A DNA stretch of 29,824 bases, taken from the IMG/VR virus record IMGVR_UViG_2609459820_000011, positions 1 to 29,824 of that record; one strand, written 5' to 3'. Position 1 is the stretch's first letter. Each line of letters starts with the position of its first letter. The translations under genes were made by a program, and so were the position numbers. The notes under the pieces were generated by a model, which was not told where the DNA came from, did not search any database, and saw nothing but the letters and a program-made list of their open reading frames with translations. The stretch is from a virus. Taxonomy: Duplodnaviria > Heunggongvirae > Uroviricota > Caudoviricetes. Shown in pieces: positions 10,060-21,169 of this stretch.

Positions 10060-10355
10060 ACTGTTTTCAGTTTGTGTGCGGATGTGCTTTCGATAACCCG
10101 ATTCAGCGCCTGATTATGTTGCGTGTTTTGATGTCGGGTTCTTCAGACGGTGAAGGCGAGAGAGTTATTGATCATCAGGTGCTTGCTGATTTCTGCTGTT
10201 GTTCTAAGCAAGCGATATTCAGGGAAACCCTGGCACTGGAAAGAGCTGGTTATCTTCATATCCGAAAAATTGCAACGCTTACTATTGATGCAAAAGCCAG
10301 ACTACAACCTGCGCGTGGCTACACAATTCTCATGCCGCGGAAGGAGGTTGTATGA
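10056..10355 (+). CDS. Hypothetical protein (99 aa), possible DNA-binding protein
   Basis: GTG start with GGGAGG RBS; overlaps the upstream stop. Confidence 0.5.
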   Translation: MNCFQFVCGCAFDNPIQRLIMLRVLMSGSSDGEGERVIDHQVLADFCCCSKQAIFRETLALERAGYLHIRKIATLTIDAKARLQPARGYTILMPRKEVV

Positions 10356-11344
10356 GCCGTTACGCCCCCACACCGGAAGTTATGGCTATTGGTCAAATTA
10401 ATATTTCCGGCAATGTTACACCTGCGAACTGGTGGAAATATATTCGACTACCCAGTGGGCGTCCGGATGCGACGGCTATCGCTCTGCTTTCAGAGATCGT
10501 TTACTGGTACCGCCCGACAGAGGTCAGGGATGAGCACACCGGAGCGTTGCTGGGATATCGCAAGCGTTTTCAGGGCGACAAACTGCAAAGAAGCTACCAG
10601 GCGTTTGCTGAGCAGTTTGGTTTCGGGAAAAGGGAAACCGCAGATGCGCTGAAGCGTCTGCGCGATGCAGGGTTTATTACTCTGGATTTACGCACGGTGG
10701 AAATGCTCGATGGGGTGAAATGCAGCAATATTTTGTTTGTCGGGATCAACCCACAGGCAATTGCGGCCATCACCACACCTTCTTCTGTTTCGCCAGAAAG
10801 TAACAGCAATAATGCAATCAGCGATACAGCTATTACGTTAAAACGGAACACCCCCCGACGTCATAACGGAACAGGGGATACGCCGAATGTTGATACAAAT
10901 ACAGAGATTACTACAGAGATTACAACGGAGACTAAAAACACTATTGATGCATCCGCTGACGCGTCTGCGCCAGCGCGTTCTGCCCGACAGGAATATTCAC
11001 CGGAATTTGAACAGGCCTGGCAGGAATATCCCAAACGTGCTGGTGGCAATTCCAAGTCAGCAGCCTTCAAAGCCTGGAAAGCCCGTATCAGGGAGGGAAT
11101 AAAACCGGAGACCATGCTTGATGGCGTGAAGCGGTATGCCGCCTGGGTACGTGCTACAGGAAATACCGGCACACAGTTCGTGAAGCAGGCTGCGACGTTC
11201 TTTGGACCCGATCGTCACTTCGAAGATTACTGGCAACAGCCAGCCGCTCACGGAGGTGGGCGACAGCGACAGGTCGATGTCCTGGCTGGCCTGGGAGCCA
11301 TGTCTGACAAATTCGGTAAATCCAGTAACAAATTGACATTCTGA
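10352..11344 (+). CDS. Replication initiation protein (O-like), two domains joined by a low-complexity linker
   Basis: AGGAGG RBS; sits directly upstream of the helicase loader and helicase; linker is encoded by tandem DNA repeats. Confidence 0.7.
   Translation: MSRYAPTPEVMAIGQINISGNVTPANWWKYIRLPSGRPDATAIALLSEIVYWYRPTEVRDEHTGALLGYRKRFQGDKLQRSYQAFAEQFGFGKRETADALKRLRDAGFITLDLRTVEMLDGVKCSNILFVGINPQAIAAITTPSSVSPESNSNNAISDTAITLKRNTPRRHNGTGDTPNVDTNTEITTEITTETKNTIDASADASAPARSARQEYSPEFEQAWQEYPKRAGGNSKSAAFKAWKARIREGIKPETMLDGVKRYAAWVRATGNTGTQFVKQAATFFGPDRHFEDYWQQPAAHGGGRQRQVDVLAGLGAMSDKFGKSSNKLTF
10901..10936. repeat. Three tandem 12-bp direct repeats inside the initiator gene; candidate ori iterons
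   Basis: ACAGAGATTACT / ACAGAGATTACA / ACGGAGACTAAA, encoding TEITTEITTETK in the linker. Confidence 0.35.
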
Positions 11345-11345
11345 G

Positions 11346-12254
11346 GTGACAGCGATGATGACGATTGACCAACGTGAGAAACAAACAAGACTACAGGCGC
11401 GAATGGATGAGTTACGGGCAGAAATGGATGAGTTACGGGCAGAGATTGCATTTGCTCAGAAGGGCGAAAAGCCATGGCCTTATCGTTCCTGCCTGATGCG
11501 TGAAGGTCGCGGATATTGCGAAAAACACGGTAAATATCGTACGCATATACTGGTGTGGATCGATCGTAATGGCGAGGACAGAGAAAAAATTTCATGCTGC
11601 CCTGACTGCTTGATCGCTGAGGCCAGTGATTTGACCATGGAACTGTCGTCCCTCAAGGCGGAAGAACTGACTGATAACGCCGGAATTGCTCTGCGTTTTC
11701 GGGACTGCGAGTTTGATAATTATCTGGAGGTTAATCCTGACGCAGCCAGAAATCTTGCGGCCTGTCGCCGCTATGCGGAGAACTGGCCAGATATGCTGGA
11801 GAACGGTACCAGTCTTGTTATGACCGGCAGTTGCGGTACCGGGAAAAATCATCTGGCGGTATCAATGGCAAAACACATCATCCGTAACTATCTGGCCAGT
11901 GTGGAGATCACCGACGTGATGCGCCTTACCCGGGCTGTGAAAAACTGCTGGCGGAATGACAGTGAAAAAACAGCGGATGACGTCATTGAGCATTATGCGT
12001 CACTGGATTTGCTGATTGTCGACGAAGTCGGCGTTCAGTTTGGCAGTGCGGCTGAAATGGCCATTTTGCAGGAAATTATCAATGCCCGGTATGAGGGTAT
12101 TTTGCCAACTATCCTGATCAGCAACCTTTCACCGGAAGAATTGTGGGCGTTCATCAGTCCCCGGATTGCCGACAGGATCACCGATGGCGGGCGCAACTGG
12201 TTGTCGTTTAACTGGCCCAGCTACCGTTCTCGTATCGGAGGTGTTGCCGCATGA
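11346..12254 (+). CDS. DnaC-like helicase loader (IstB/DnaC-type AAA+ ATPase)
   Basis: Walker A GSCGTGKNHLA and Walker B LLIVDEVG; Cys-rich N-terminal region; sits between the initiator and the helicase. Confidence 0.85.
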   Translation: MTAMMTIDQREKQTRLQARMDELRAEMDELRAEIAFAQKGEKPWPYRSCLMREGRGYCEKHGKYRTHILVWIDRNGEDREKISCCPDCLIAEASDLTMELSSLKAEELTDNAGIALRFRDCEFDNYLEVNPDAARNLAACRRYAENWPDMLENGTSLVMTGSCGTGKNHLAVSMAKHIIRNYLASVEITDVMRLTRAVKNCWRNDSEKTADDVIEHYASLDLLIVDEVGVQFGSAAEMAILQEIINARYEGILPTILISNLSPEELWAFISPRIADRITDGGRNWLSFNWPSYRSRIGGVAA

Positions 12255-13651
12255 CCAGCCAGAACACCCCGGCATGGCGTAACGATGACCTGGAAGGCGC
12301 TGTCATCGGTGCGTTTTTTCTGCGTGGGGCCGATCCGGAAGTGATGGATATTCTGGCCACACTTCCGGCGGATGTATTTTTTGTGCGTCAGTACCGGGAT
12401 ATTTACGCGGGGATTTGCAGACAGGCTCGCATATCCGGCGTCATTGACCCCGTACTGCTGTGCAATGAGATGCCGGAACTTGCCCCGGTGATTACCGACA
12501 CCGGACGCAAAACCTGGGTGAAGTCTTCACTGGAGCACTATGTCGCAGCGTTGCGGCGCAATGCCGCACTGCGCGATGCAGAAAAAACACTGACTGAAGC
12601 ATTACAGAATTTACGTGATGCGTATACCTGTGAAGCAGCCGAGGATGCCCTGAAGGATGTGCAGAACATGATGGCCTCACTGTCGACCGGAAAGGGCGTC
12701 ATTCAGCCGGTTCACATTGATGATGTCCTTCCGGAAGTGGTCGACCGTGTTGAATGCCGCAATCAGGGACTGGAGAAATCCAGGGCGCTGATGACCGGTA
12801 TTGATGAACTGGACGCAAAAACGGGCGGTATGGAGCCCGGTGACCTGGTATTCATTGCCGCCCGTCCTTCGATGGGGAAAACCGAACTTGCGCTGGACAT
12901 CATCGACAAGGTGACTGAGCAGGGGCATGGCGTGCTTCTGTTCACCATGGAGATGGCGAACATCCAGATTGGTGAACGTATGGTGTCTGCTGCCGGTGGA
13001 ATGCCGGTATCCCGTCTTAAGTCTGTTGCCCGTTTTGAAGATGAAGACTGGGCGCGTTTCTCGCAGGGCGTGGGACGAATGACGGGGCGTAATATCTGGA
13101 TGGTGGATCAGGCAAACCTGACCATTGATGAGATATGTGCAACCACGAAGCACCACCGGATGAAACACCCGGAAACGGCGCTGGTGGTGGTCGATTACCT
13201 CGGTCTGATTAAAACCCGCAGCACGGGGCGTCACGACCTTGCTGTGGGGGAAATCTCAAAGGGACTTAAAAGCCTGGCAAAATCCGGCGGTTTCCCGCTG
13301 ATTGCTCTGAGCCAGCTCTCCCGAGGCGTGGAATCCAGACCCAATAAACGTCCCATGAACTCAGACCTGAAAAACTCCGGGGAAATAGAGGCTGATGCCG
13401 ACATCATTCTGATGCTTTACAGGGATGAGGTGTATAACCCGGATACACAGGCCAGAGGCATAGCAGAAATCAACATCACGAAACAGCGTAATGGCACACT
13501 CGGGACCATTTACCGGCGTTTTCATAACGGACATTTTCTGCCTGTGGACCAGGAGAGTGCCCGGGTTCTTTCCACACCCATGACGCCGGGCAATCCGCGC
13601 AGATACAGCAATAACCGCATGTCGGGCAGTAAAACGGAGCGTTTATTTTGA
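12251..13651 (+). CDS. Replicative DNA helicase, DnaB family
   Basis: 466 aa; Walker A ARPSMGKTELALD; DnaB-like C-terminal RecA-fold motifs (SQLSR, DADIILMLYRDE); ATGA overlap with the loader gene. Confidence 0.9.
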   Translation: MTSQNTPAWRNDDLEGAVIGAFFLRGADPEVMDILATLPADVFFVRQYRDIYAGICRQARISGVIDPVLLCNEMPELAPVITDTGRKTWVKSSLEHYVAALRRNAALRDAEKTLTEALQNLRDAYTCEAAEDALKDVQNMMASLSTGKGVIQPVHIDDVLPEVVDRVECRNQGLEKSRALMTGIDELDAKTGGMEPGDLVFIAARPSMGKTELALDIIDKVTEQGHGVLLFTMEMANIQIGERMVSAAGGMPVSRLKSVARFEDEDWARFSQGVGRMTGRNIWMVDQANLTIDEICATTKHHRMKHPETALVVVDYLGLIKTRSTGRHDLAVGEISKGLKSLAKSGGFPLIALSQLSRGVESRPNKRPMNSDLKNSGEIEADADIILMLYRDEVYNPDTQARGIAEINITKQRNGTLGTIYRRFHNGHFLPVDQESARVLSTPMTPGNPRRYSNNRMSGSKTERLF

Positions 13652-13905
13652 ACAACAGAACAATCACTGTTTCACCGGAACAACTTCGTCGGCAGGCGCA
13701 GGAGATGCTTCGTTGTGCTGAACAGATGGAAAAAACGAGCGTGAAAAAAGATACGCTCCGCAAGCAGCTTACTCCGGCGCTTCGTGATCTGCTGCAGGCA
13801 AAACACCGCACACAAAAGGCGGTGGATGAGCTGGTGGATTGCGTGGCGGAACTGGAAGGACAGGTAAGCCAGTTTGAAACGCTGGTGAAGGAGTTTACTG
13901 CGTGA
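13648..13905 (+). CDS. Hypothetical protein (85 aa, TTG start)
   Basis: ACGGAG RBS 9 nt upstream of the TTG; overlaps the helicase stop. Confidence 0.45.
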   Translation: MNNRTITVSPEQLRRQAQEMLRCAEQMEKTSVKKDTLRKQLTPALRDLLQAKHRTQKAVDELVDCVAELEGQVSQFETLVKEFTA

Positions 13906-13951
13906 TGGCTGAATTTTTTTCTCCTGCGTTCATGCAATACCGTTCGCTGAG

Positions 13952-14779
13952 GTGACCGTGAGAGCACTGCTGACCCCTGAAATTGCCCCGCGTATGGGGA
14001 TCGTCTTGTTCAGACCCGGTTCAGAGCTGATGCCCCTGTTTATGCAGGGGCGTGTCCTGCTGGAGCCTGAGCCGGAACGTTATTCATCTTTTGCCAGTGG
14101 TGCCGTTCCGGCAGCATCACAACCGCTGGCGGATGATCCTGCCGTTCGGGCCGTGTTCCGCCATGAGGCGGTGATCCGTCGTGCTGGTGGCGTGGAATGC
14201 CTTGAGAGCTGGTTACTTCGTGAAAAAGGCTGCCAGTGGCCTCATTCCGGATGGCACAGCGAGAACATGACCACAATGCGACACGCGCCGGGCGCAATCC
14301 GTCTGTGCTGGCACTGCGATAACCTGCTTCGCGATCAGTTCACGGAACGTCTGGAATCAATGGCAACGGATAACTGTGCCCGCTGGGTGTTGTCCGTAGT
14401 CCGTCGTGATCTCGGTTTTGATGACAGCCACGTTGTGACAATGCCGGAACTGTGCTGGTGGCTGGTTCGTAATGACCTGGCGGATGCCTTACCGGAAAGT
14501 GCAGCCCGTAAGGCACTGAGATTACCGAAGCCTGTTGTGCCGTCTGTCACCCGGGAAAGTGACCTTGTGCCTTCGGTTCCTGCCACCAGCATCATCCGGG
14601 ATAAGGCGAAAAAGGTGCTGGCGCTGAAAGTGGATCCGGAGTCGCCGGAGTCTTTTATGTTACGCCCCAAACGTCGTCGCTGGGTTAATGAAAAGTACAC
14701 GCGCTGGGTTAAGACGCAGCCGTGTGCATGTTGTGGTAAGCCAGCCGACGATCCTCATCACCTGATTGGTCATGGTTAG
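13952..14779 (+). CDS. DUF968-like protein, N-terminal portion ending at an in-frame amber codon (TAG 14777-14779); the frame continues to 14946
   Basis: C-terminus CACCGKPADDPHHLIGHG then TAG then GGMGTKAHDLFVLPLCRKHHDGLHAD in the same frame; the DUF968 name is from memory. Confidence 0.6.
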   Translation: MTVRALLTPEIAPRMGIVLFRPGSELMPLFMQGRVLLEPEPERYSSFASGAVPAASQPLADDPAVRAVFRHEAVIRRAGGVECLESWLLREKGCQWPHSGWHSENMTTMRHAPGAIRLCWHCDNLLRDQFTERLESMATDNCARWVLSVVRRDLGFDDSHVVTMPELCWWLVRNDLADALPESAARKALRLPKPVVPSVTRESDLVPSVPATSIIRDKAKKVLALKVDPESPESFMLRPKRRRWVNEKYTRWVKTQPCACCGKPADDPHHLIGHG

Positions 14780-14964
14780 GGTGGAATGGGTACAAAAGCG
14801 CATGACCTTTTTGTGTTGCCTTTGTGCAGAAAACACCATGACGGACTGCATGCGGATACCGTGGCATTTGAAGAGAAGTATGGTTCCCAACTGGAGCTGA
14901 TATTTCGTTTTATCGATCGCGCGCTGGCGATTGGTGTGCTGTCCTGATTTTGTGGAGAAAGTTG

Positions 14965-15348
14965 ATGCGTGATATTCAGATGGTTCTCGAACGCTGGGGA
15001 GCATGGGCGGCAAATAATCATGAGGATGTGACCTGGTCGTCCATTGCTGCCGGTTTTAAGGGATTAATTCCTTCAAAAGTAAAATCTCGCCCGCAATGTT
15101 GTGACGATGACGCGATGATCATTTGCGGGTGCATGGCCCGTCTGAAAAAGAACAACAGCGATTTACACGATTTATTAGTAGATTATTATGTATGTGGTAT
15201 GACATTCATGTCACTGGCAAGTAAGCATTGCTGCTCGGATGGTTATATCGGGAAAAGGTTACAGAAGGCTGAGGGCATAATTGAAGGGATGTTAATGGCA
15301 TTAGATATCCGGTTAGATATGGATATCGTTGCTAATAATTCTAATTGA
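14965..15348 (+). CDS. quuD: Late antiterminator Q (QuuD-like)
   Basis: 127 aa from [22 protein letters not shown] with GGAGA RBS; recognised from memory as the DLP12-type Q. Confidence 0.8.
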
Positions 15349-15535: not shown

Positions 15536-16618
15536 TTAGAACTGATAAACCAGACCTACAGCGACGATGTCGTCGGTATCAATACCAGCTGTTTTGGTAA
15601 ACTTACTATCGTCAATTAAGTTGATTTTGTAATCAACAAAAGTGGACATGTTTTTATTAAAGTAGTAAGTAGCACCGACATCGACATACTTGACTAAGTC
15701 TCGGTCACCATGAACACCAAGGTCTTTACCTTTTGACTGAAGGTAAGCAACAGATGGGCGCAGACCGAAGTCAAACTGATATTGTGCTACTGCTTCAAAG
15801 TTTTGTGCTTTGTTTGCAATATGGTTATTACCAAAAACGGTCATATTCTGAGTTTCAGAATATGTGGTAGCCAGATAGATATTGTTCGCATCATATTTCA
15901 GGCCTGCAGCCCATACTTCCGCATTTTTGCCGGAGGCATTGAATTTGCTCTTACCATAGGCGACCTGACCGTCAGTGCGATCTGATTTAGCATAGGTTGC
16001 ACCCACGCCGAATCCTTCATACTCATAAGTAGTGGAGAAACCGAAACCATCACCATTGGCTTCAGCTACGTCAGTGCGGTCATTTTTACCCTGATACTGA
16101 GCAGCAAAGTTCAGGCCATCGACCAGACCAAAGAAGTCGTTGTTACGATAAGTTGCAACACCAGTTGCACGTTGAGTCATGAACACGTCGGTTTGAGTCC
16201 AAGTGTCACCACCGAATTCTGGCAGGACGTCAGTCCACGCACCGATGTCGTATGCTACACCGAAGTTACGGCCGTAATCGATTGAGCCGTAATCACCAAA
16301 TTTCAGGCCTGCAAATGCAAGACGGGTTTTGTCTTTGGAAGAACCTTGAGATTCAGCACGGTTGCCTTTGAAGTCATATTCCCACTGACCGAACCCAGTC
16401 AGTTGATCGTTGATTTGGGTTTCACCTTTGAAGCCAAGACGGGCATAAGTAGTATCACCATCATCTGCATCATTAGAGGAGAAGTAGTGCTTGGCATTAA
16501 CTTTCCCGTATAGATCCAGCTTGTTACTGTCTTTATTATAAATTTCAGCTGCCTGAGCAGACATCGCCATCAGTACTGATGCAGCTACAGCAGAAATTGC
16601 CACTGTTAATTTTTTCAT
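15536..16618 (-). CDS. nmpC: Outer membrane porin, OmpC/OmpF family, NmpC/OmpD type (intact; 360-aa precursor)
   Basis: Signal peptide [23 protein letters not shown]; [16 protein letters not shown] porin N-terminus; C-terminal ...AVGLVYQF; AAGGG RBS; AT-rich upstream region. Confidence 0.9.
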
Positions 16619-17044
16619 TGTACGCCCTTTTTTTGAACTATTATAAAAAAATGATGTCACTGCGCGATAAATATTCATCTAATCAATGTGATTATTTCAA
16701 GATGTAAGTTTTAGTTTCTCATTTAATTTGTGAAGTAGATCTCTATTTTTATCTGAACCTTTTCTATCTAATCCTATTCATGGCTCTTGTTTGAACAAAA
16801 ATAAATCTATTAGCTAATTTATATTAATGGCACTTATTTATAAGTAGTCTATAATTCTTTAGCTTAATTTAAACAAACTAAAAATAACATCCGAAATTAT
16901 TTATTGGTTATTTGTTGAAGTTTTCTTATGTATTTGTGGTGGTGTTTTGAACACTCGGTGGCATTCTCACAAATATCATTTAGTAGTTTACGTACGTAAA
17001 AAATTGGTTATGCTGTTAAGAGTAGTTACTTCGTCACACAGCTT

Positions 17045-17070
17045 AAACCCGCCGATGAGCGGTTTTTTTT
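17045..17070 (+). terminator. Candidate intrinsic terminator (short GC stem plus T8)
   Basis: AAACCCGC cgatga GCGGTTTTTTTT. Confidence 0.35.
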
Positions 17071-17407
17071 GTGCCTGAACGTTAAATGCGCTGGTGGTTG
17101 TGAATGCCGACTGCGGCGGTATTTTGGCGTGACGGCGCAGGTGCCGTATACCGATGTCTGGACGCATAAACCGGTGCAGTTCTATCCCGGGAAACATCCG
17201 TGCGAAAAACCGGCAGAAATGCTGCAGCAGATAATCAGCGCTAGCAGTCGTCCGGGTGACCTGATTGCAGATTTTTTCATGGGGTCGGGTTCGACAGTGA
17301 AAGCGGCACTGGCGCTCGGGCGTCGTGCAATTGGCGTTGAGCTGGAGACTGAACGTTTTGAGCAGACGGTTCGGGAAGTACAGGATTTAGTCAGCCAGAA
17401 CGGATGA
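17069..17407 (+). pseudogene. C-terminal remnant of a beta-class N6-adenine/N4-cytosine DNA methyltransferase; no credible start and the N-terminal DPPY region is missing
   Basis: HPCEKPAEMLQQIISASSRPGDLIADFFMGSGSTVKAALALGRRAIGVE matches the C-terminal HP..KP and FxGSG(S/T)T motifs; ORF opens with TTG right after a T-run; first ATG leaves only 63 codons. Confidence 0.55.
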
Positions 17408-17447
17408 TATTGAAGAATTAATTACGCGTCGTTATTATGCGGCTCCC

Positions 17448-17523
17448 GGCCCTTTAGCTCAGTGGTGAGAGCGAGCGACTCATAATCGCCAGGTCGCTGG
17501 TTCAAATCCAGCAAGGGCCACCA
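17448..17523 (+). tRNA. ileZ: tRNA-Ile2 (anticodon CAU, ileX/ileZ-like) with encoded CCA
   Basis: Folded by hand: acceptor GGCCCTT/AAGGGCC, D-arm GCTC-AGTGGTGA-GAGC, anticodon loop CTCATAA, T-loop TTCAAAT, 3' CCA; very similar to E. coli ileX from memory. Confidence 0.85.
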
Positions 17524-17623
17524 TCACAAACCGCCATTAGCTTATCAGGAAGAGCAGACGACGCGATAACAGGGTTGTTGGTGCGGGGGCGGGTCCCCGA
17601 TGGCGGTCCATTATCGGTATTCA

Positions 17624-17697
17624 GCGTTGTTAGCTCAGCCGGACAGAGCAATTGCCTTCTAAGCAATCGGTCACTGGTTCGAATCCAGTACAGCGCG
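17624..17697 (+). tRNA. tRNA-Arg (anticodon UCU)
   Basis: Folded by hand: acceptor GCGTTGT/ACAGCGC (one G-U), anticodon stem ATTGC/GCAAT with loop CTTCTAA, T-arm ACTGG-TTCGAAT-CCAGT. Confidence 0.8.
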
Positions 17698-17837
17698 CTA
17701 TATTCATTCTTCCAGATTCCTTCCGGCAGAGCCTTATACTGAAATATACCTGGCTCAGGATATTGTTGAAAATATTATATGTTTGTCAAAAATAAAAGTT
17801 CTGTTAAGTATTGATTGAGTGTTTGTTATACGGTCTA

Positions 17838-18164
17838 ATGGTTTTTTCAGCATTAAATATTTATCATTCATATGGTGTGGGTAGAGTGAATATTGATGAG
17901 GCGTCGGGGTGTTTCATCCTTAGGCAGCGTATTGATATAGTCAATGCAGCACGAGCAAAGGCCTTCAGCCGTTTGACAGTTTTGTTCTGTACTCCTGATC
18001 GTCTTTCGGGAAGAGACGTTATTATTCTGAATAGTGATGCTATTCAGAGGGTTTGCGATGAGTTCATGGTTGCTAATTCAGAATTATTTGCTCTTGTTCA
18101 GGAGTACAACAGAATAGCCAGGACCTGTGGTATGGATGAACTTCGGATTACTCATCTGGGGTAG
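17838..18164 (+). CDS. Hypothetical protein (108 aa from the first ATG; ORF opens at 17811 with TTG); poor translation signals
   Basis: ORF track; sits at the stx-equivalent position downstream of the tRNAs; no RBS seen. Confidence 0.3.
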   Translation: MVFSALNIYHSYGVGRVNIDEASGCFILRQRIDIVNAARAKAFSRLTVLFCTPDRLSGRDVIILNSDAIQRVCDEFMVANSELFALVQEYNRIARTCGMDELRITHLG

Positions 18165-18556
18165 ATACATATCTGGATTATCACTTGTTACGGTAAAAAG
18201 TGATTGCTTACTGTTTTTGTGAGTGGCATTGCAGCAGCCGGATAATGTCAGTGCTGGCTGACGGTGTGCTGGTGGCGGGTGTGGTGGTTGTTGCTTTCCC
18301 GTTGCTGAAAAAGAAAACGCCAGACTGTTAGCCGGGTATCAGTTAGCGGGAGAAATTTTTAAATACTTCACAATTCAGGCGGTTGACTGTTGTCTGGTTT
18401 GCGGGGAGTTTGTTAAAAGAAACTGGCATGGTGAATCCCCCTGTGCGGAGGGGCAATCAGCGAGTAGGTATATGGGATAATCGCGGATTCAGGTGCTGGT
18501 ACTGAATTCACCGGGAGGCACCCGGCACCATGCAATGGCACATAGCGCCACTCTCC

Positions 18557-18590
18557 AGCCCCTCTCCGGAGGGGCTGTTTATATTGATTT
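18557..18590 (+). terminator. Intrinsic terminator
   Basis: AGCCCCTC tccg GAGGGGCT followed by GTTTATATTGATTTT. Confidence 0.55.
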
Positions 18591-18611
18591 TGTCAGATGT
18601 GAGTAAACTCC

Positions 18612-18947
18612 TTATGGACTTTGTTGTTTTAGTCCATAAGGACATATTTGCAGAGTGCAACGGTTATTAAAGCATTCATTCAATACGTTATCTGTATTTG
18701 TAGGACATTCCTGGCTGTTTTTGATTAAATTCCAGAATGTTTTATTGAATGGTGCTACGTTGTAAATGGTTACAGGTAGCACTTTGTTATTGAGCATGAT
18801 ACCTGTGTGAGTCAGTGTAAATATACTTTCAGGAGGTAAGAAAGCATCCGATTGATACCAGATTATTAATTTTATTTTACTCCATATGACTGAAAAAGAT
18901 ATTCCGCATGATGGCTGGATAACTGTATCAATCACAATCCACTTCAT
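18612..18947 (-). CDS. Hypothetical Cys-containing protein (111 aa) in an AT-rich cargo segment, opposite to late transcription
   Basis: AAGGAAA RBS 5 nt upstream of the ATG; AT-rich upstream region 18950-19190. Confidence 0.5.
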
Positions 18948-19207
18948 TTAGTTTCCTTGTTTATGTCTTGCTGGTGATGTTCTGAAAAGTATAAATGATA
19001 TTTTTGAATGTAAACCATAGAGCAGAATTATTTTTCTGATGTTGTTTATTGTTTATTTAAATGCAGGGTGGTTTATATCTCGTCTTGTAGTTTATCCATG
19101 CATATCTGCTTGATGATGAGGTTTTTATTTAAGGTATGGTTTTGTGTTTTTTCTGTATTACATGTCAGGTATTTTAAAGAATTATTTTTCAGATGGTGGA
19201 AAGAACC

Positions 19208-21169
19208 ATGGCATTTAAACACTATGATGTTGTCAGGGCGGCATCGCCGTCAGACCTTGCGAAACGACTGACACAAAAACTGAAGGAGGGGTGGCAGCCA
19301 TTTGGCAGTCCGGTGGCCATCACGCCTTATACCCTGATGCAGGCCATTGCGGCGGAAGGTGATGTCACCACACCTGTGGTGGTGAAGCCGTCGGATGGAG
19401 AAGGCGCAGTTATCAGCACCACCAGCAACCCGGAGTATTACTTTGTTGTTGCCCTGGCCGGGCAGTCAAACGGTATGGCGTATGGTGAAGGGCTTCCGCT
19501 GCCGGAGACATATGACCGTCCGGACCCGCGTATTAAACAGCTGGCGCGTCGCAGCACTGTCACGCCGGGTGGTGCGTCCTGTAACTACAATGACATTATT
19601 CCTGCGGACCACTGCCTGCATGATGTTCAGGATTTGAGTAAGTTTTCACACCCGAAAGCCAGCGCAGCTCAGTATGGATGCGTGGGGCAGGGATTACATA
19701 TCGCGAAGAAATTGTTGCCGTTTATTCCGGCGAATGCCGGTATTCTTCTGGTTCCGTGCTGCCGTGGTGGTTCTGCATTTTTGGCGGGCGATGAAGGTAC
19801 CTTCAGCGAATCCACCGGCGCAAGCGAGACCTCGGCACGCTGGGGTGTTGATAAGCCACTGTACAAGGACCTGCTTACCCGTACTCAGGCCGCACTGAAG
19901 GCCAACCCTAAAAATATTCTGCTTGCAGTGGTCTGGATGCAGGGCGAGTTTGATTTGAAACAGGGTGCATACGCCACTCAGCCGGGGCTGTTTGATTCCA
20001 TGGTGGAAAAATATCGTTCTGACCTGTCGGAATTCGGAGGTCAGTGTCTCGGGGGCTCTCCGTCATCGGTTCCCTGGATTTGTGGCGACACGACCTACTA
20101 CTGGAAGCAGACTTATTCTTCGCAATACGATGCGGTGTATGGTGCATACAAGACGAAATCCGCAAAAAAAATCTTCTTTGTGCCGTTTATGACGGATGAA
20201 AACGGGCGAAATGTGGGTACCAACGAGCCGTCAGAAGATCCGGATGTTGCGGATATTGGGTATTACGGAGCCGGTGGTCGAACGGACGCCAAAACCTGGA
20301 CGACGGCCGACCGTAAAACGCATTTTGGATCATGGGCACGTCGTGGGATTATTTCCGACCGTCTGGCAACGGCGATTCTTGTGCATGCCGGGAGAAACGC
20401 TGAATTCATTACCGGAAAACAGCCTGATACGGTGAAGCCCACCGGACCTTCCGGTGAAGGTACGGAGAGAGAGCCGGAAGCCCCGGTCAGTAACCGAACC
20501 CTGATGAGTCTGCTGGCGTCCGGCGAAGACCTGGCATCACAGGGCTGGCGCTATTATCACAAACCGGCGAGCGGAGACAATGTTAACAAAAACATTGCTG
20601 AAGCGGTGGTCAGTGATGCGGGGGCTACGGGAGGTAAGGCCCTGCAACTGAATAAACCGGAAAACCACATCTGGTTTCTGGAGCATGATGCAGCCGGACA
20701 GGGAGTGGAGTTACTGAAGAAGGGGGGACGTGTGAGCGTACGGTTTAAGTTGCCGGGTTCACTGGTGCCGAATCAGTTTGCCCTGGGCATTTACTGGCAG
20801 TTGTCGTCCCTGCCGGAGGGAGTGACGCTGGCAGAGGAAGGCAACGACATGCTGATGTCCTTCTTTCTGCAGACGGATGCGACGAACCTGAACGCGATGC
20901 ACCACAAGAAGCCGAATGCGAAGCTGGAAACGTTCGGGGTCTTTGATAACGGATGGCACACACTGGCTTTTGAGTTTGCCGGAAACAACAGCATTCAGGT
21001 GACGCCGGTACTGGATGAGAAACGGGGGACGCCGTTCACACTGGTGAAATCTCCGGCATCAGGGGCGGCGGACAAACTGCAACTGACAGGCATATCAAAG
21101 GCGGCGACATATACGCTGCTGATTGACAGTGTGAAGGTGGAAGTGAACAACGCGGACATCGCGGCATGA
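19208..21169 (+). CDS. nanS-p: Prophage NanS-p-type sialate O-acetylesterase (DUF1737 N-terminal domain plus SGNH/SASA esterase domain plus C-terminal domain)
   Basis: N-terminus MAFKHYDVVRAASPSDLAKRLTQKLKEGWQPFG; GQSN esterase motif (VALAGQSNGMAYGE); position upstream of the holin, as in Stx-type phages. Confidence 0.8.
   Translation: MAFKHYDVVRAASPSDLAKRLTQKLKEGWQPFGSPVAITPYTLMQAIAAEGDVTTPVVVKPSDGEGAVISTTSNPEYYFVVALAGQSNGMAYGEGLPLPETYDRPDPRIKQLARRSTVTPGGASCNYNDIIPADHCLHDVQDLSKFSHPKASAAQYGCVGQGLHIAKKLLPFIPANAGILLVPCCRGGSAFLAGDEGTFSESTGASETSARWGVDKPLYKDLLTRTQAALKANPKNILLAVVWMQGEFDLKQGAYATQPGLFDSMVEKYRSDLSEFGGQCLGGSPSSVPWICGDTTYYWKQTYSSQYDAVYGAYKTKSAKKIFFVPFMTDENGRNVGTNEPSEDPDVADIGYYGAGGRTDAKTWTTADRKTHFGSWARRGIISDRLATAILVHAGRNAEFITGKQPDTVKPTGPSGEGTEREPEAPVSNRTLMSLLASGEDLASQGWRYYHKPASGDNVNKNIAEAVVSDAGATGGKALQLNKPENHIWFLEHDAAGQGVELLKKGGRVSVRFKLPGSLVPNQFALGIYWQLSSLPEGVTLAEEGNDMLMSFFLQTDATNLNAMHHKKPNAKLETFGVFDNGWHTLAFEFAGNNSIQVTPVLDEKRGTPFTLVKSPASGAADKLQLTGISKAATYTLLIDSVKVEVNNADIAA

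Follow-up and report, generated by a model that had tools for sequence, protein, structure and literature searches.

Proteins of the DUF968 family, among them YdfU of the Qin prophage, are encoded beside the antiterminator gene Q in lambdoid prophages and carry the motif CxxC...HH...C..HH..H near the C-terminus; in phage records the homolog is named either ydfU or putative HNH endonuclease. The function of the family is a predicted one. Together with DUF1364 (YbcO, PDB 3g27), DUF968 was assigned to group 7 of the His-Me finger superfamily; its genomic neighbours include RusA and Q, and a role of a recombination or repair nuclease, like that of NinG and of RecA-dependent nucleases, was proposed, with an explicit comparison to NinG (PMC5714182). 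DUF968 was also described as a domain with a C-terminal zinc-finger HNH motif (PMC4118853).

The phage proteins closest to this family differ from it in several respects. Ref of phage P1 (PDB 3plw), a RecA-dependent HNH nuclease, is small and has one domain only; the DUF968 protein is longer by about 240 residues at the N-terminus, and the match in sequence between the two lies below the Pfam threshold. YbcO from the DLP12/phage 82 prophage represents the finger domain alone (81 residues in the solved chain) and was not detected when the DUF968 protein was used in sequence and profile searches. NinG (Rap) of lambda, a structure-specific endonuclease, is found in a comparable slot, with the replication genes on one side and Q on the other, but belongs to a different Pfam family; its likeness to the DUF968 protein is one of position and literature, and no sequence or fold match was obtained here.

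Another group of known objects relevant to this work is the classical amber mutants of lambda, which were selected in the laboratory, concern essential genes and are kept on supE or supF suppressor strains. The locus considered below combines features of both groups. The window, i.e., the whole analysed stretch of 29,824 nucleotides, contains a DUF968 gene which occupies the same place beside Q as ydfU and, when read through its stop codon, encodes a protein that has the same motif and fits the DUF968 model end to end. Unlike its relatives, the frame is broken by a TAG codon inside the finger. As in the lambda mutants, this TAG is located in a phage gene and could be corrected by a Gln-inserting suppressor; in contrast to them, it is a natural allele of a probably dispensable gene, and no suppressor was detected in the host that was checked (glnV and glnX of one carrier). 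In our opinion, the feature is very probably an ordinary inherited loss-of-function allele of an accessory gene of a lambdoid prophage.

The interrupted gene and its prophage

The window is a lambdoid, Stx-phage-like prophage without stx, integrated beside yecN and a DUF72 gene. It contains, in this order, the integrase, the immunity region, a DnaC-like ATPase, a DnaB-type helicase, an 85-aa ORF, the DUF968 gene and antiterminator Q, followed by an ompC-like porin on the minus strand, a methyltransferase remnant, tRNAs, lysis genes and the terminase. The upstream replication module (12251-13905, plus strand) includes the DnaB-type replicative helicase at 12251-13651 and the 85-aa ORF at 13648-13905, according to the ORF list and the PGAP annotation of identical DNA. 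The Q gene of the quuD type (14965-15348, plus strand), recognised by PGAP on identical DNA and by a Phage_antitermQ Pfam match, lies directly downstream of the DUF968 gene, which is therefore placed in the nin-region slot just upstream of Q.

Several peculiarities downstream of Q deserve a description. The ompC-like porin gene (15536-16678, minus strand) sits between Q and the methyltransferase remnant (17069-17407), which is devoid of its N-terminus; in related Stx2 prophages the porin is absent and an intact 1059-bp methyltransferase gene is found at this site. Apparently, the 5' part of the methylase gene was replaced when the cassette with the porin came in. The tRNA cluster (17448-17698, plus strand), delineated with ARAGORN, Rfam, an alignment with Stx-phage tRNAs and folding, comprises a tRNA with the CAT anticodon (annotated as tRNA-Ile), a degenerate tRNA-like relic and tRNA-Arg (TCT). 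The relic (17524-17623, plus strand), which lies between the other two, is called neither by ARAGORN nor by Rfam. It corresponds to argN of Stx phages in the acceptor and D arms, but has another anticodon arm in place of the original one and a T-loop, GCGGGTC, devoid of TTC. At least 976 complete E. coli genomes contain these 100 bases with an identity of 99% or higher, and the 12 records listed have no feature annotated there. In prophages that are identical elsewhere, the relic is the only place where SNPs cluster. The slot past the tRNAs, which in Stx2 phages contains stxAB, is occupied by a full-length match to the sRNA family STnc100 (18397-18586, plus strand, 132 bits) and, beside it, by a 111-aa PmrD-like ORF (18612-18947, minus strand).

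The 5' part of the DUF968 gene extends over 13958-14779 on the plus strand and comprises 273 codons and the premature amber codon TAG at 14777-14779, as follows from the ORF list, the translation and the starts of homologs and of the PGAP annotation. The preliminary description had placed the feature at 13952-14946. Its end has to be moved to 14947, the closing TGA being at 14945-14947. Its beginning, GTG 13952, is in frame two codons upstream of GTG 13958 and gives an ORF of 275 codons before the TAG; GTG 13958 is, however, most likely the true start, because the homologs all begin with MRALL, PGAP starts the gene there on identical DNA, and an SD-like GAGG is located at 13947-13950, 7 nt upstream of this codon. 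Initiation at GTG 13958 gives a truncated product of 273 aa and an intact product of 329 aa.

Beyond the TAG, the same frame remains open for 55 sense codons (GGMGTKAHDLFVLPLCRKHHDGLHAD...IGVLS) up to the TGA, and this 3' remnant (14780-14947, plus strand) supplies the His-Me finger with its strand 2 and its helix, including C292, H295, H296 and H300, and also encodes the C-terminal helices. The termination of the ORF at 14777-14779, its continuation for 55 codons and the position of the stop between HLIGHG and GGMG were all correctly described earlier, in agreement with the sequence, the ORF list and the translation. Taken alone, the open frame past the TAG is not significant, since about 10% of the stops in the window are followed by at least 55 open codons. 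The continuation of DUF968 is nevertheless beyond chance because of homology, namely the Pfam match of the read-through translation, the downstream piece's own match and the identity of this piece to the 3' end of the intact gene. The ORF list also contains a 53-aa ORF (MGTKAHDL..., 14786-14947, plus strand) that begins 7 nt past the TAG, with the codon of a Met which is conserved among family members. In eight loci this ORF is called as a separate gene with a precomputed DUF968 match. An SD-like pairing of -7.4 kcal/mol, comparable to those of real genes in the window, precedes ATG 14786 and ends directly at it, and the 53-aa ORF is possibly a reinitiation product.

Fold and predicted function of the DUF968 protein

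The DUF968-like identity proposed in the preliminary description was well founded: the read-through protein matches Pfam DUF968 (PF06147) over residues 162-328 with an E-value of 2.8e-80 and 268.8 bits, the gathering cut-off being 27.8. Both fragments carry precomputed DUF968 matches as well. The read-through protein also corresponds end to end to PHROG 96 'HNH endonuclease' (E 2.2e-174). Separate PHROGs families match residues 3-135 only (phrog_11007) and residues 261-331 only (phrog_23141), which suggests that fragmented copies of the DUF968 gene recur among deposited phage genomes.

An AlphaFold model was obtained for an intact homolog with 98% identity, using an alignment of 41 sequences, and had a mean pLDDT of 88.2. 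The C-terminal domain of this homolog is modelled as a strand at 265-268, containing the HH pair, a strand at 286-289 and a helix at 291-299, i.e., as the beta-hairpin and helix of the His-Me finger fold. The presumed catalytic His at the end of strand 1 and the putative metal and zinc ligands of this finger (C258/C261, H269-H270, C292, H295/H296 and H300) are all encoded by the read-through frame, and homologs conserve them. In the window, the finger core is encoded at 14723-14851 (plus strand), with CxxC at 14723-14734, HH at 14756-14761, then the TAG, C at 14825-14827, HH at 14834-14839 and H at 14849-14851. The finger is thus not one uninterrupted polypeptide here, the TAG being located between strand 1 and strand 2. 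The Gln at the TAG site is residue 274 of the modelled homolog (276 when counted from GTG 13952) and lies in the Gly-rich inter-strand loop with lower pLDDT. The His/Cys-rich stretch downstream of the stop, previously regarded as a continuation of the same metal-binding domain, is indeed the second half of the zinc-bearing His-Me finger.

A PDB sequence search with the protein and a profile search with the 41 sequences gave nothing useful and missed even YbcO, and a search by fold had to be used in their place. From the fold and the motif, we infer that the C-terminal 70-80 residues are a zinc-stabilised His-Me finger (HNH) nuclease domain, which most resembles phage P1 Ref and prophage YbcO.

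Intact alleles and distribution of the amber allele

The closest intact allele was found in a near-identical prophage of E. coli CE10. Over 996 bp, it differs from the gene of the window only at position 14777, with C instead of T (99.9% identity), and has CAG (Gln) in place of TAG, encoding the intact 329-aa protein WP_001202272.1; the 3' piece in the window is base-for-base identical to the 3' end of the CE10 gene. The Stx2 prophages of O157:H7 also have CAG at this site, with 12-18 differences from the gene of the window. Fifteen homologs with 68-97% identity (E. coli, Salmonella, Kosakonia, Phytobacter, Citrobacter and others) were aligned, which is the check that the preliminary description had proposed; the TAG column contained Gln in 13 of them, Met in one and Asn in one. 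In the same alignment, the 55 downstream residues belong to the best-conserved ones of the protein. As a rule, proteins from E. coli, Salmonella, Kosakonia, Phytobacter and Citrobacter have a full length of 329-330 aa and show strong conservation of the C-terminus, and the C-terminal motif is kept in homologs down to 25% identity, in which the TAG column of distant members is occupied by Q, M, N, F, L or E.

The two alleles were counted in complete E. coli genomes with a 55-mer centred on the variable base, so that each 28-base megablast seed spans that base. In this seed-restricted search, the TAG allele was found in 2 of 5426 genomes and the CAG allele in 1585 genomes (2092 places). Both these counts and the alignment indicate that the in-frame TAG is not conserved among homologs. 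The gene of the window thus differs by a single substitution from an otherwise identical intact allele, and its downstream frame is homologous to the 3' part of intact genes, as is characteristic of a nonsense pseudogene. Based on the CE10 allele, the allele counts, the homolog column and the conserved C-terminus, the TAG is a CAG-to-TAG nonsense mutation in a normally full-length gene, in accordance with the first of the two alternatives given in the preliminary description. A 272-aa protein ending in HLIGH (P0027) was considered as a copy of the truncated allele and rejected, since it is cut off by the end of its contig and comes from a different background.

The 996-bp gene is identical in the complete genomes of NMBU_W05E18 (Norway, pond water) and U1 (Japan). 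PGAP labels both TAG copies as 'DUF968 domain-containing protein, pseudo, internal stop', and the CAG versions as intact 329-aa proteins; the allele is therefore already known as a pseudogene in public annotation. The TAG is also present in at least eight further NCBI or Logan assemblies and in one IMG/VR contig. The window itself shares 20.8 kb at 100% identity with contig JNPU01000007.1, a part of the draft assembly GCA_000703885.1 and therefore its source. All 10 fetched carrier loci that span the whole gene have identical 996 bp, and the TAG-bearing IMG/VR contig, covering 778 bp of the gene, has one base different (14598). The exact 273-aa truncated product was found on 329 public contigs (NCBI, ENA, Logan), the 53-aa downstream ORF on 313 and the exact intact parent protein on 375.

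The backbone of the prophage is close to clonal. The window differs from the NMBU-type prophage by 1 SNP in 13.5 kb, when the tRNA-like hotspot is excluded, and from CE10 by 4 SNPs in 5.4 kb, the TAG being one of them. The late region of the window differs from that of NMBU_W05E18 and U1, and in some TAG carriers the late region, the immunity region or the neighbouring prophage is not the same. These differing surroundings mean that the module takes part in the usual mosaic exchange or that its neighbours were replaced. Decay of the 3' remnant was seen in none of the carriers examined, but the divergence between carriers is too low for this to be informative. The word 'recent', used earlier for the mutation, is in keeping with the lack of secondary decay and with a backbone near-identical to that of the intact allele, yet the allele has already reached 329 public contigs. 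Strain NMBU_W05E18 belongs to O86:H18, ST38 and phylogroup D (PMC7311804), and, judging from this one ST38 carrier, a spread along with that successful clone would be a plausible reason for the frequency of the allele.

Two observations were made on individual carriers. In GCA_006231895.1, which carries the TAG allele, the DNA that follows the methylase remnant (17006-19260 of the locus) comes from a different lambdoid module, including RusA, another Q and an intact DUF968 gene of 351 aa, so that an intact DUF968 paralog can sit only a few kb from the broken copy. A small hypothetical gene of the same prophage is frameshifted in NMBU_W05E18 (locus 10885-11108) and intact in U1 (10086-10310); this is a second, strain-specific lesion of the early region.

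Origin of the amber codon and its significance

In the most probable course of events, a single C-to-T transition at 14777 turned the Gln codon CAG into TAG in a gene of the nin-region slot between the replication genes and Q, where lambdoid phages carry recombination and repair nucleases. Translation must then end with HLIGHG, within the Gly-rich loop that connects the two beta strands of the finger. The 273-aa protein retains the N-terminal part of about 240 residues, the CxxC pair and the catalytic HH, and is devoid of strand 2, the helix, C292, H295, H296 and H300; the missing Cys and three His presumably form the second half of the zinc and metal sites. Because these structural elements and conserved residues are absent, the 273-aa product should be unable to fold the finger or to bind metals and should be nuclease-dead, judging from the fold and the motif. 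By analogy with the nin genes of lambda, as we know them, and in view of the prophage being largely intact and widely inherited, the DUF968 gene is probably dispensable for the prophage, and for this reason the allele would simply be inherited. The near-equal frequency of the allele and its intact parent (329 and 375 contigs) and the varied neighbours fit neutral hitchhiking, but they also fit a retained or altered function. As a counterpoint, a start codon with an SD-like pairing follows 7 nt past the TAG, so the C-terminal piece might still be made.

A sequencing or assembly error over a true CAG has a negligible probability. A single-base change is the commonest kind of error, and the source assembly of the window is a draft, but the same T occurs in two independently finished genomes from Norway and Japan, as well as in the eight or more additional NCBI/Logan assemblies and the IMG/VR contig, and the exact truncated product on 329 public contigs shows that the TAG is not such an error. 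The preliminary description had also supposed that the gene becomes full length in amber-suppressor hosts, the TAG being read as Gln by a supE-type tRNA of the host or by a suppressor tRNA of the phage. A supE tRNA would trivially restore Gln and give the exact wild-type protein, and other suppressors would probably also yield an active protein, as the column varies among distant homologs (Q, M, N, F, L, E). This part of the supposition stands, but it found no support as biology, and we consider a conditional gene very hard to credit. The stop is not conserved (two genomes against 1585). The only anticodons of tRNAs in the window are CAT and TCT, and the third, tRNA-like element was rejected as a candidate suppressor, having no CTA anticodon and a defective T-loop; no tRNA with the CTA anticodon was detected in the window by ARAGORN, Rfam and the alignment and folding of the relic, and since none of the cluster has this anticodon, there is no phage-borne amber suppressor. 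As for the host, whose suppressor alleles had been suggested for checking, the metT-leuW-glnUW-metU-glnVX operon was located in the carrier NMBU_W05E18, and both CUG-type tRNA-Gln genes, glnV and glnX, have wild-type CTG anticodons. The supE allele had a perfect match in 156 of 5424 complete-genome records, a count based on perfect-identity matches only, and all 30 listed of these 156 are laboratory strains or their derivatives, mostly of K-12 (C600, DH5alpha, DH1). The base following the TAG is G, and in E. coli a G after UAG is not known to make the codon leaky, which also speaks against suppression.

Inactivation favoured by selection, in which the lysogen or prophage would profit from losing the nuclease (for example, because leaky expression would no longer damage DNA as much) and the allele would have become common for this reason, is a highly improbable explanation. 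It agrees with the frequency of the allele, which is as high as that of the intact parent in the contig counts, and with at least one carrier strain being from the successful clone ST38; nevertheless, only one mutational origin on one near-identical backbone is visible, as clonal hitchhiking predicts, and the gene is intact in the great majority of prophages. Somewhat less improbable, but still unlikely, is a split functional gene. Reinitiation at ATG 14786 would provide 273-aa and 53-aa pieces that reassemble at the zinc site into an active or attenuated enzyme, or else the truncated protein alone would keep a nuclease-independent role such as DNA binding. This explanation draws on the closeness of the ATG to the stop (7 nt) with a pairing of -7.4 kcal/mol like that of real genes here, on the position of the break in a flexible, Gly-rich loop of lower pLDDT with a loss of only three residues (QGG), on the persistence of the allele on 329 contigs in mosaic contexts with an undecayed 3' part, and on the existence of separate PHROGs families, one for 134 aa at the N-terminus and one for 71 aa at the C-terminus. 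On the other hand, the ATG encodes a Met nearly invariant in intact homologs and is therefore ancestral rather than an adaptation, the SD-like pairing reaches up to the ATG and leaves virtually no spacer, the absence of decay is expected at such a low divergence, and the association of the fragments would be a supposition from sequence. The particular version in which the amber allele is a naturally split His-Me finger, acting by reinitiation and reassembly or by rare Gln read-through that gives a trace of full-length enzyme, seems to us quite improbable. If it were true, an attenuated nuclease would be tolerated or preferred by a successful host lineage, possibly ST38.

Summarizing the data on the inherited loss-of-function allele, its significance is little. 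It shows that a Stx-like lambdoid prophage can lose an accessory nuclease of the nin region and still be passed on vertically, and that gene callers then give two spurious 'DUF968' genes, one with 273 aa and one with 53 aa. The allele could mark a lineage of the prophage and of its host clone, and the TAG and CAG versions, being one base apart, represent a ready natural control for tests of DUF968 nuclease function.
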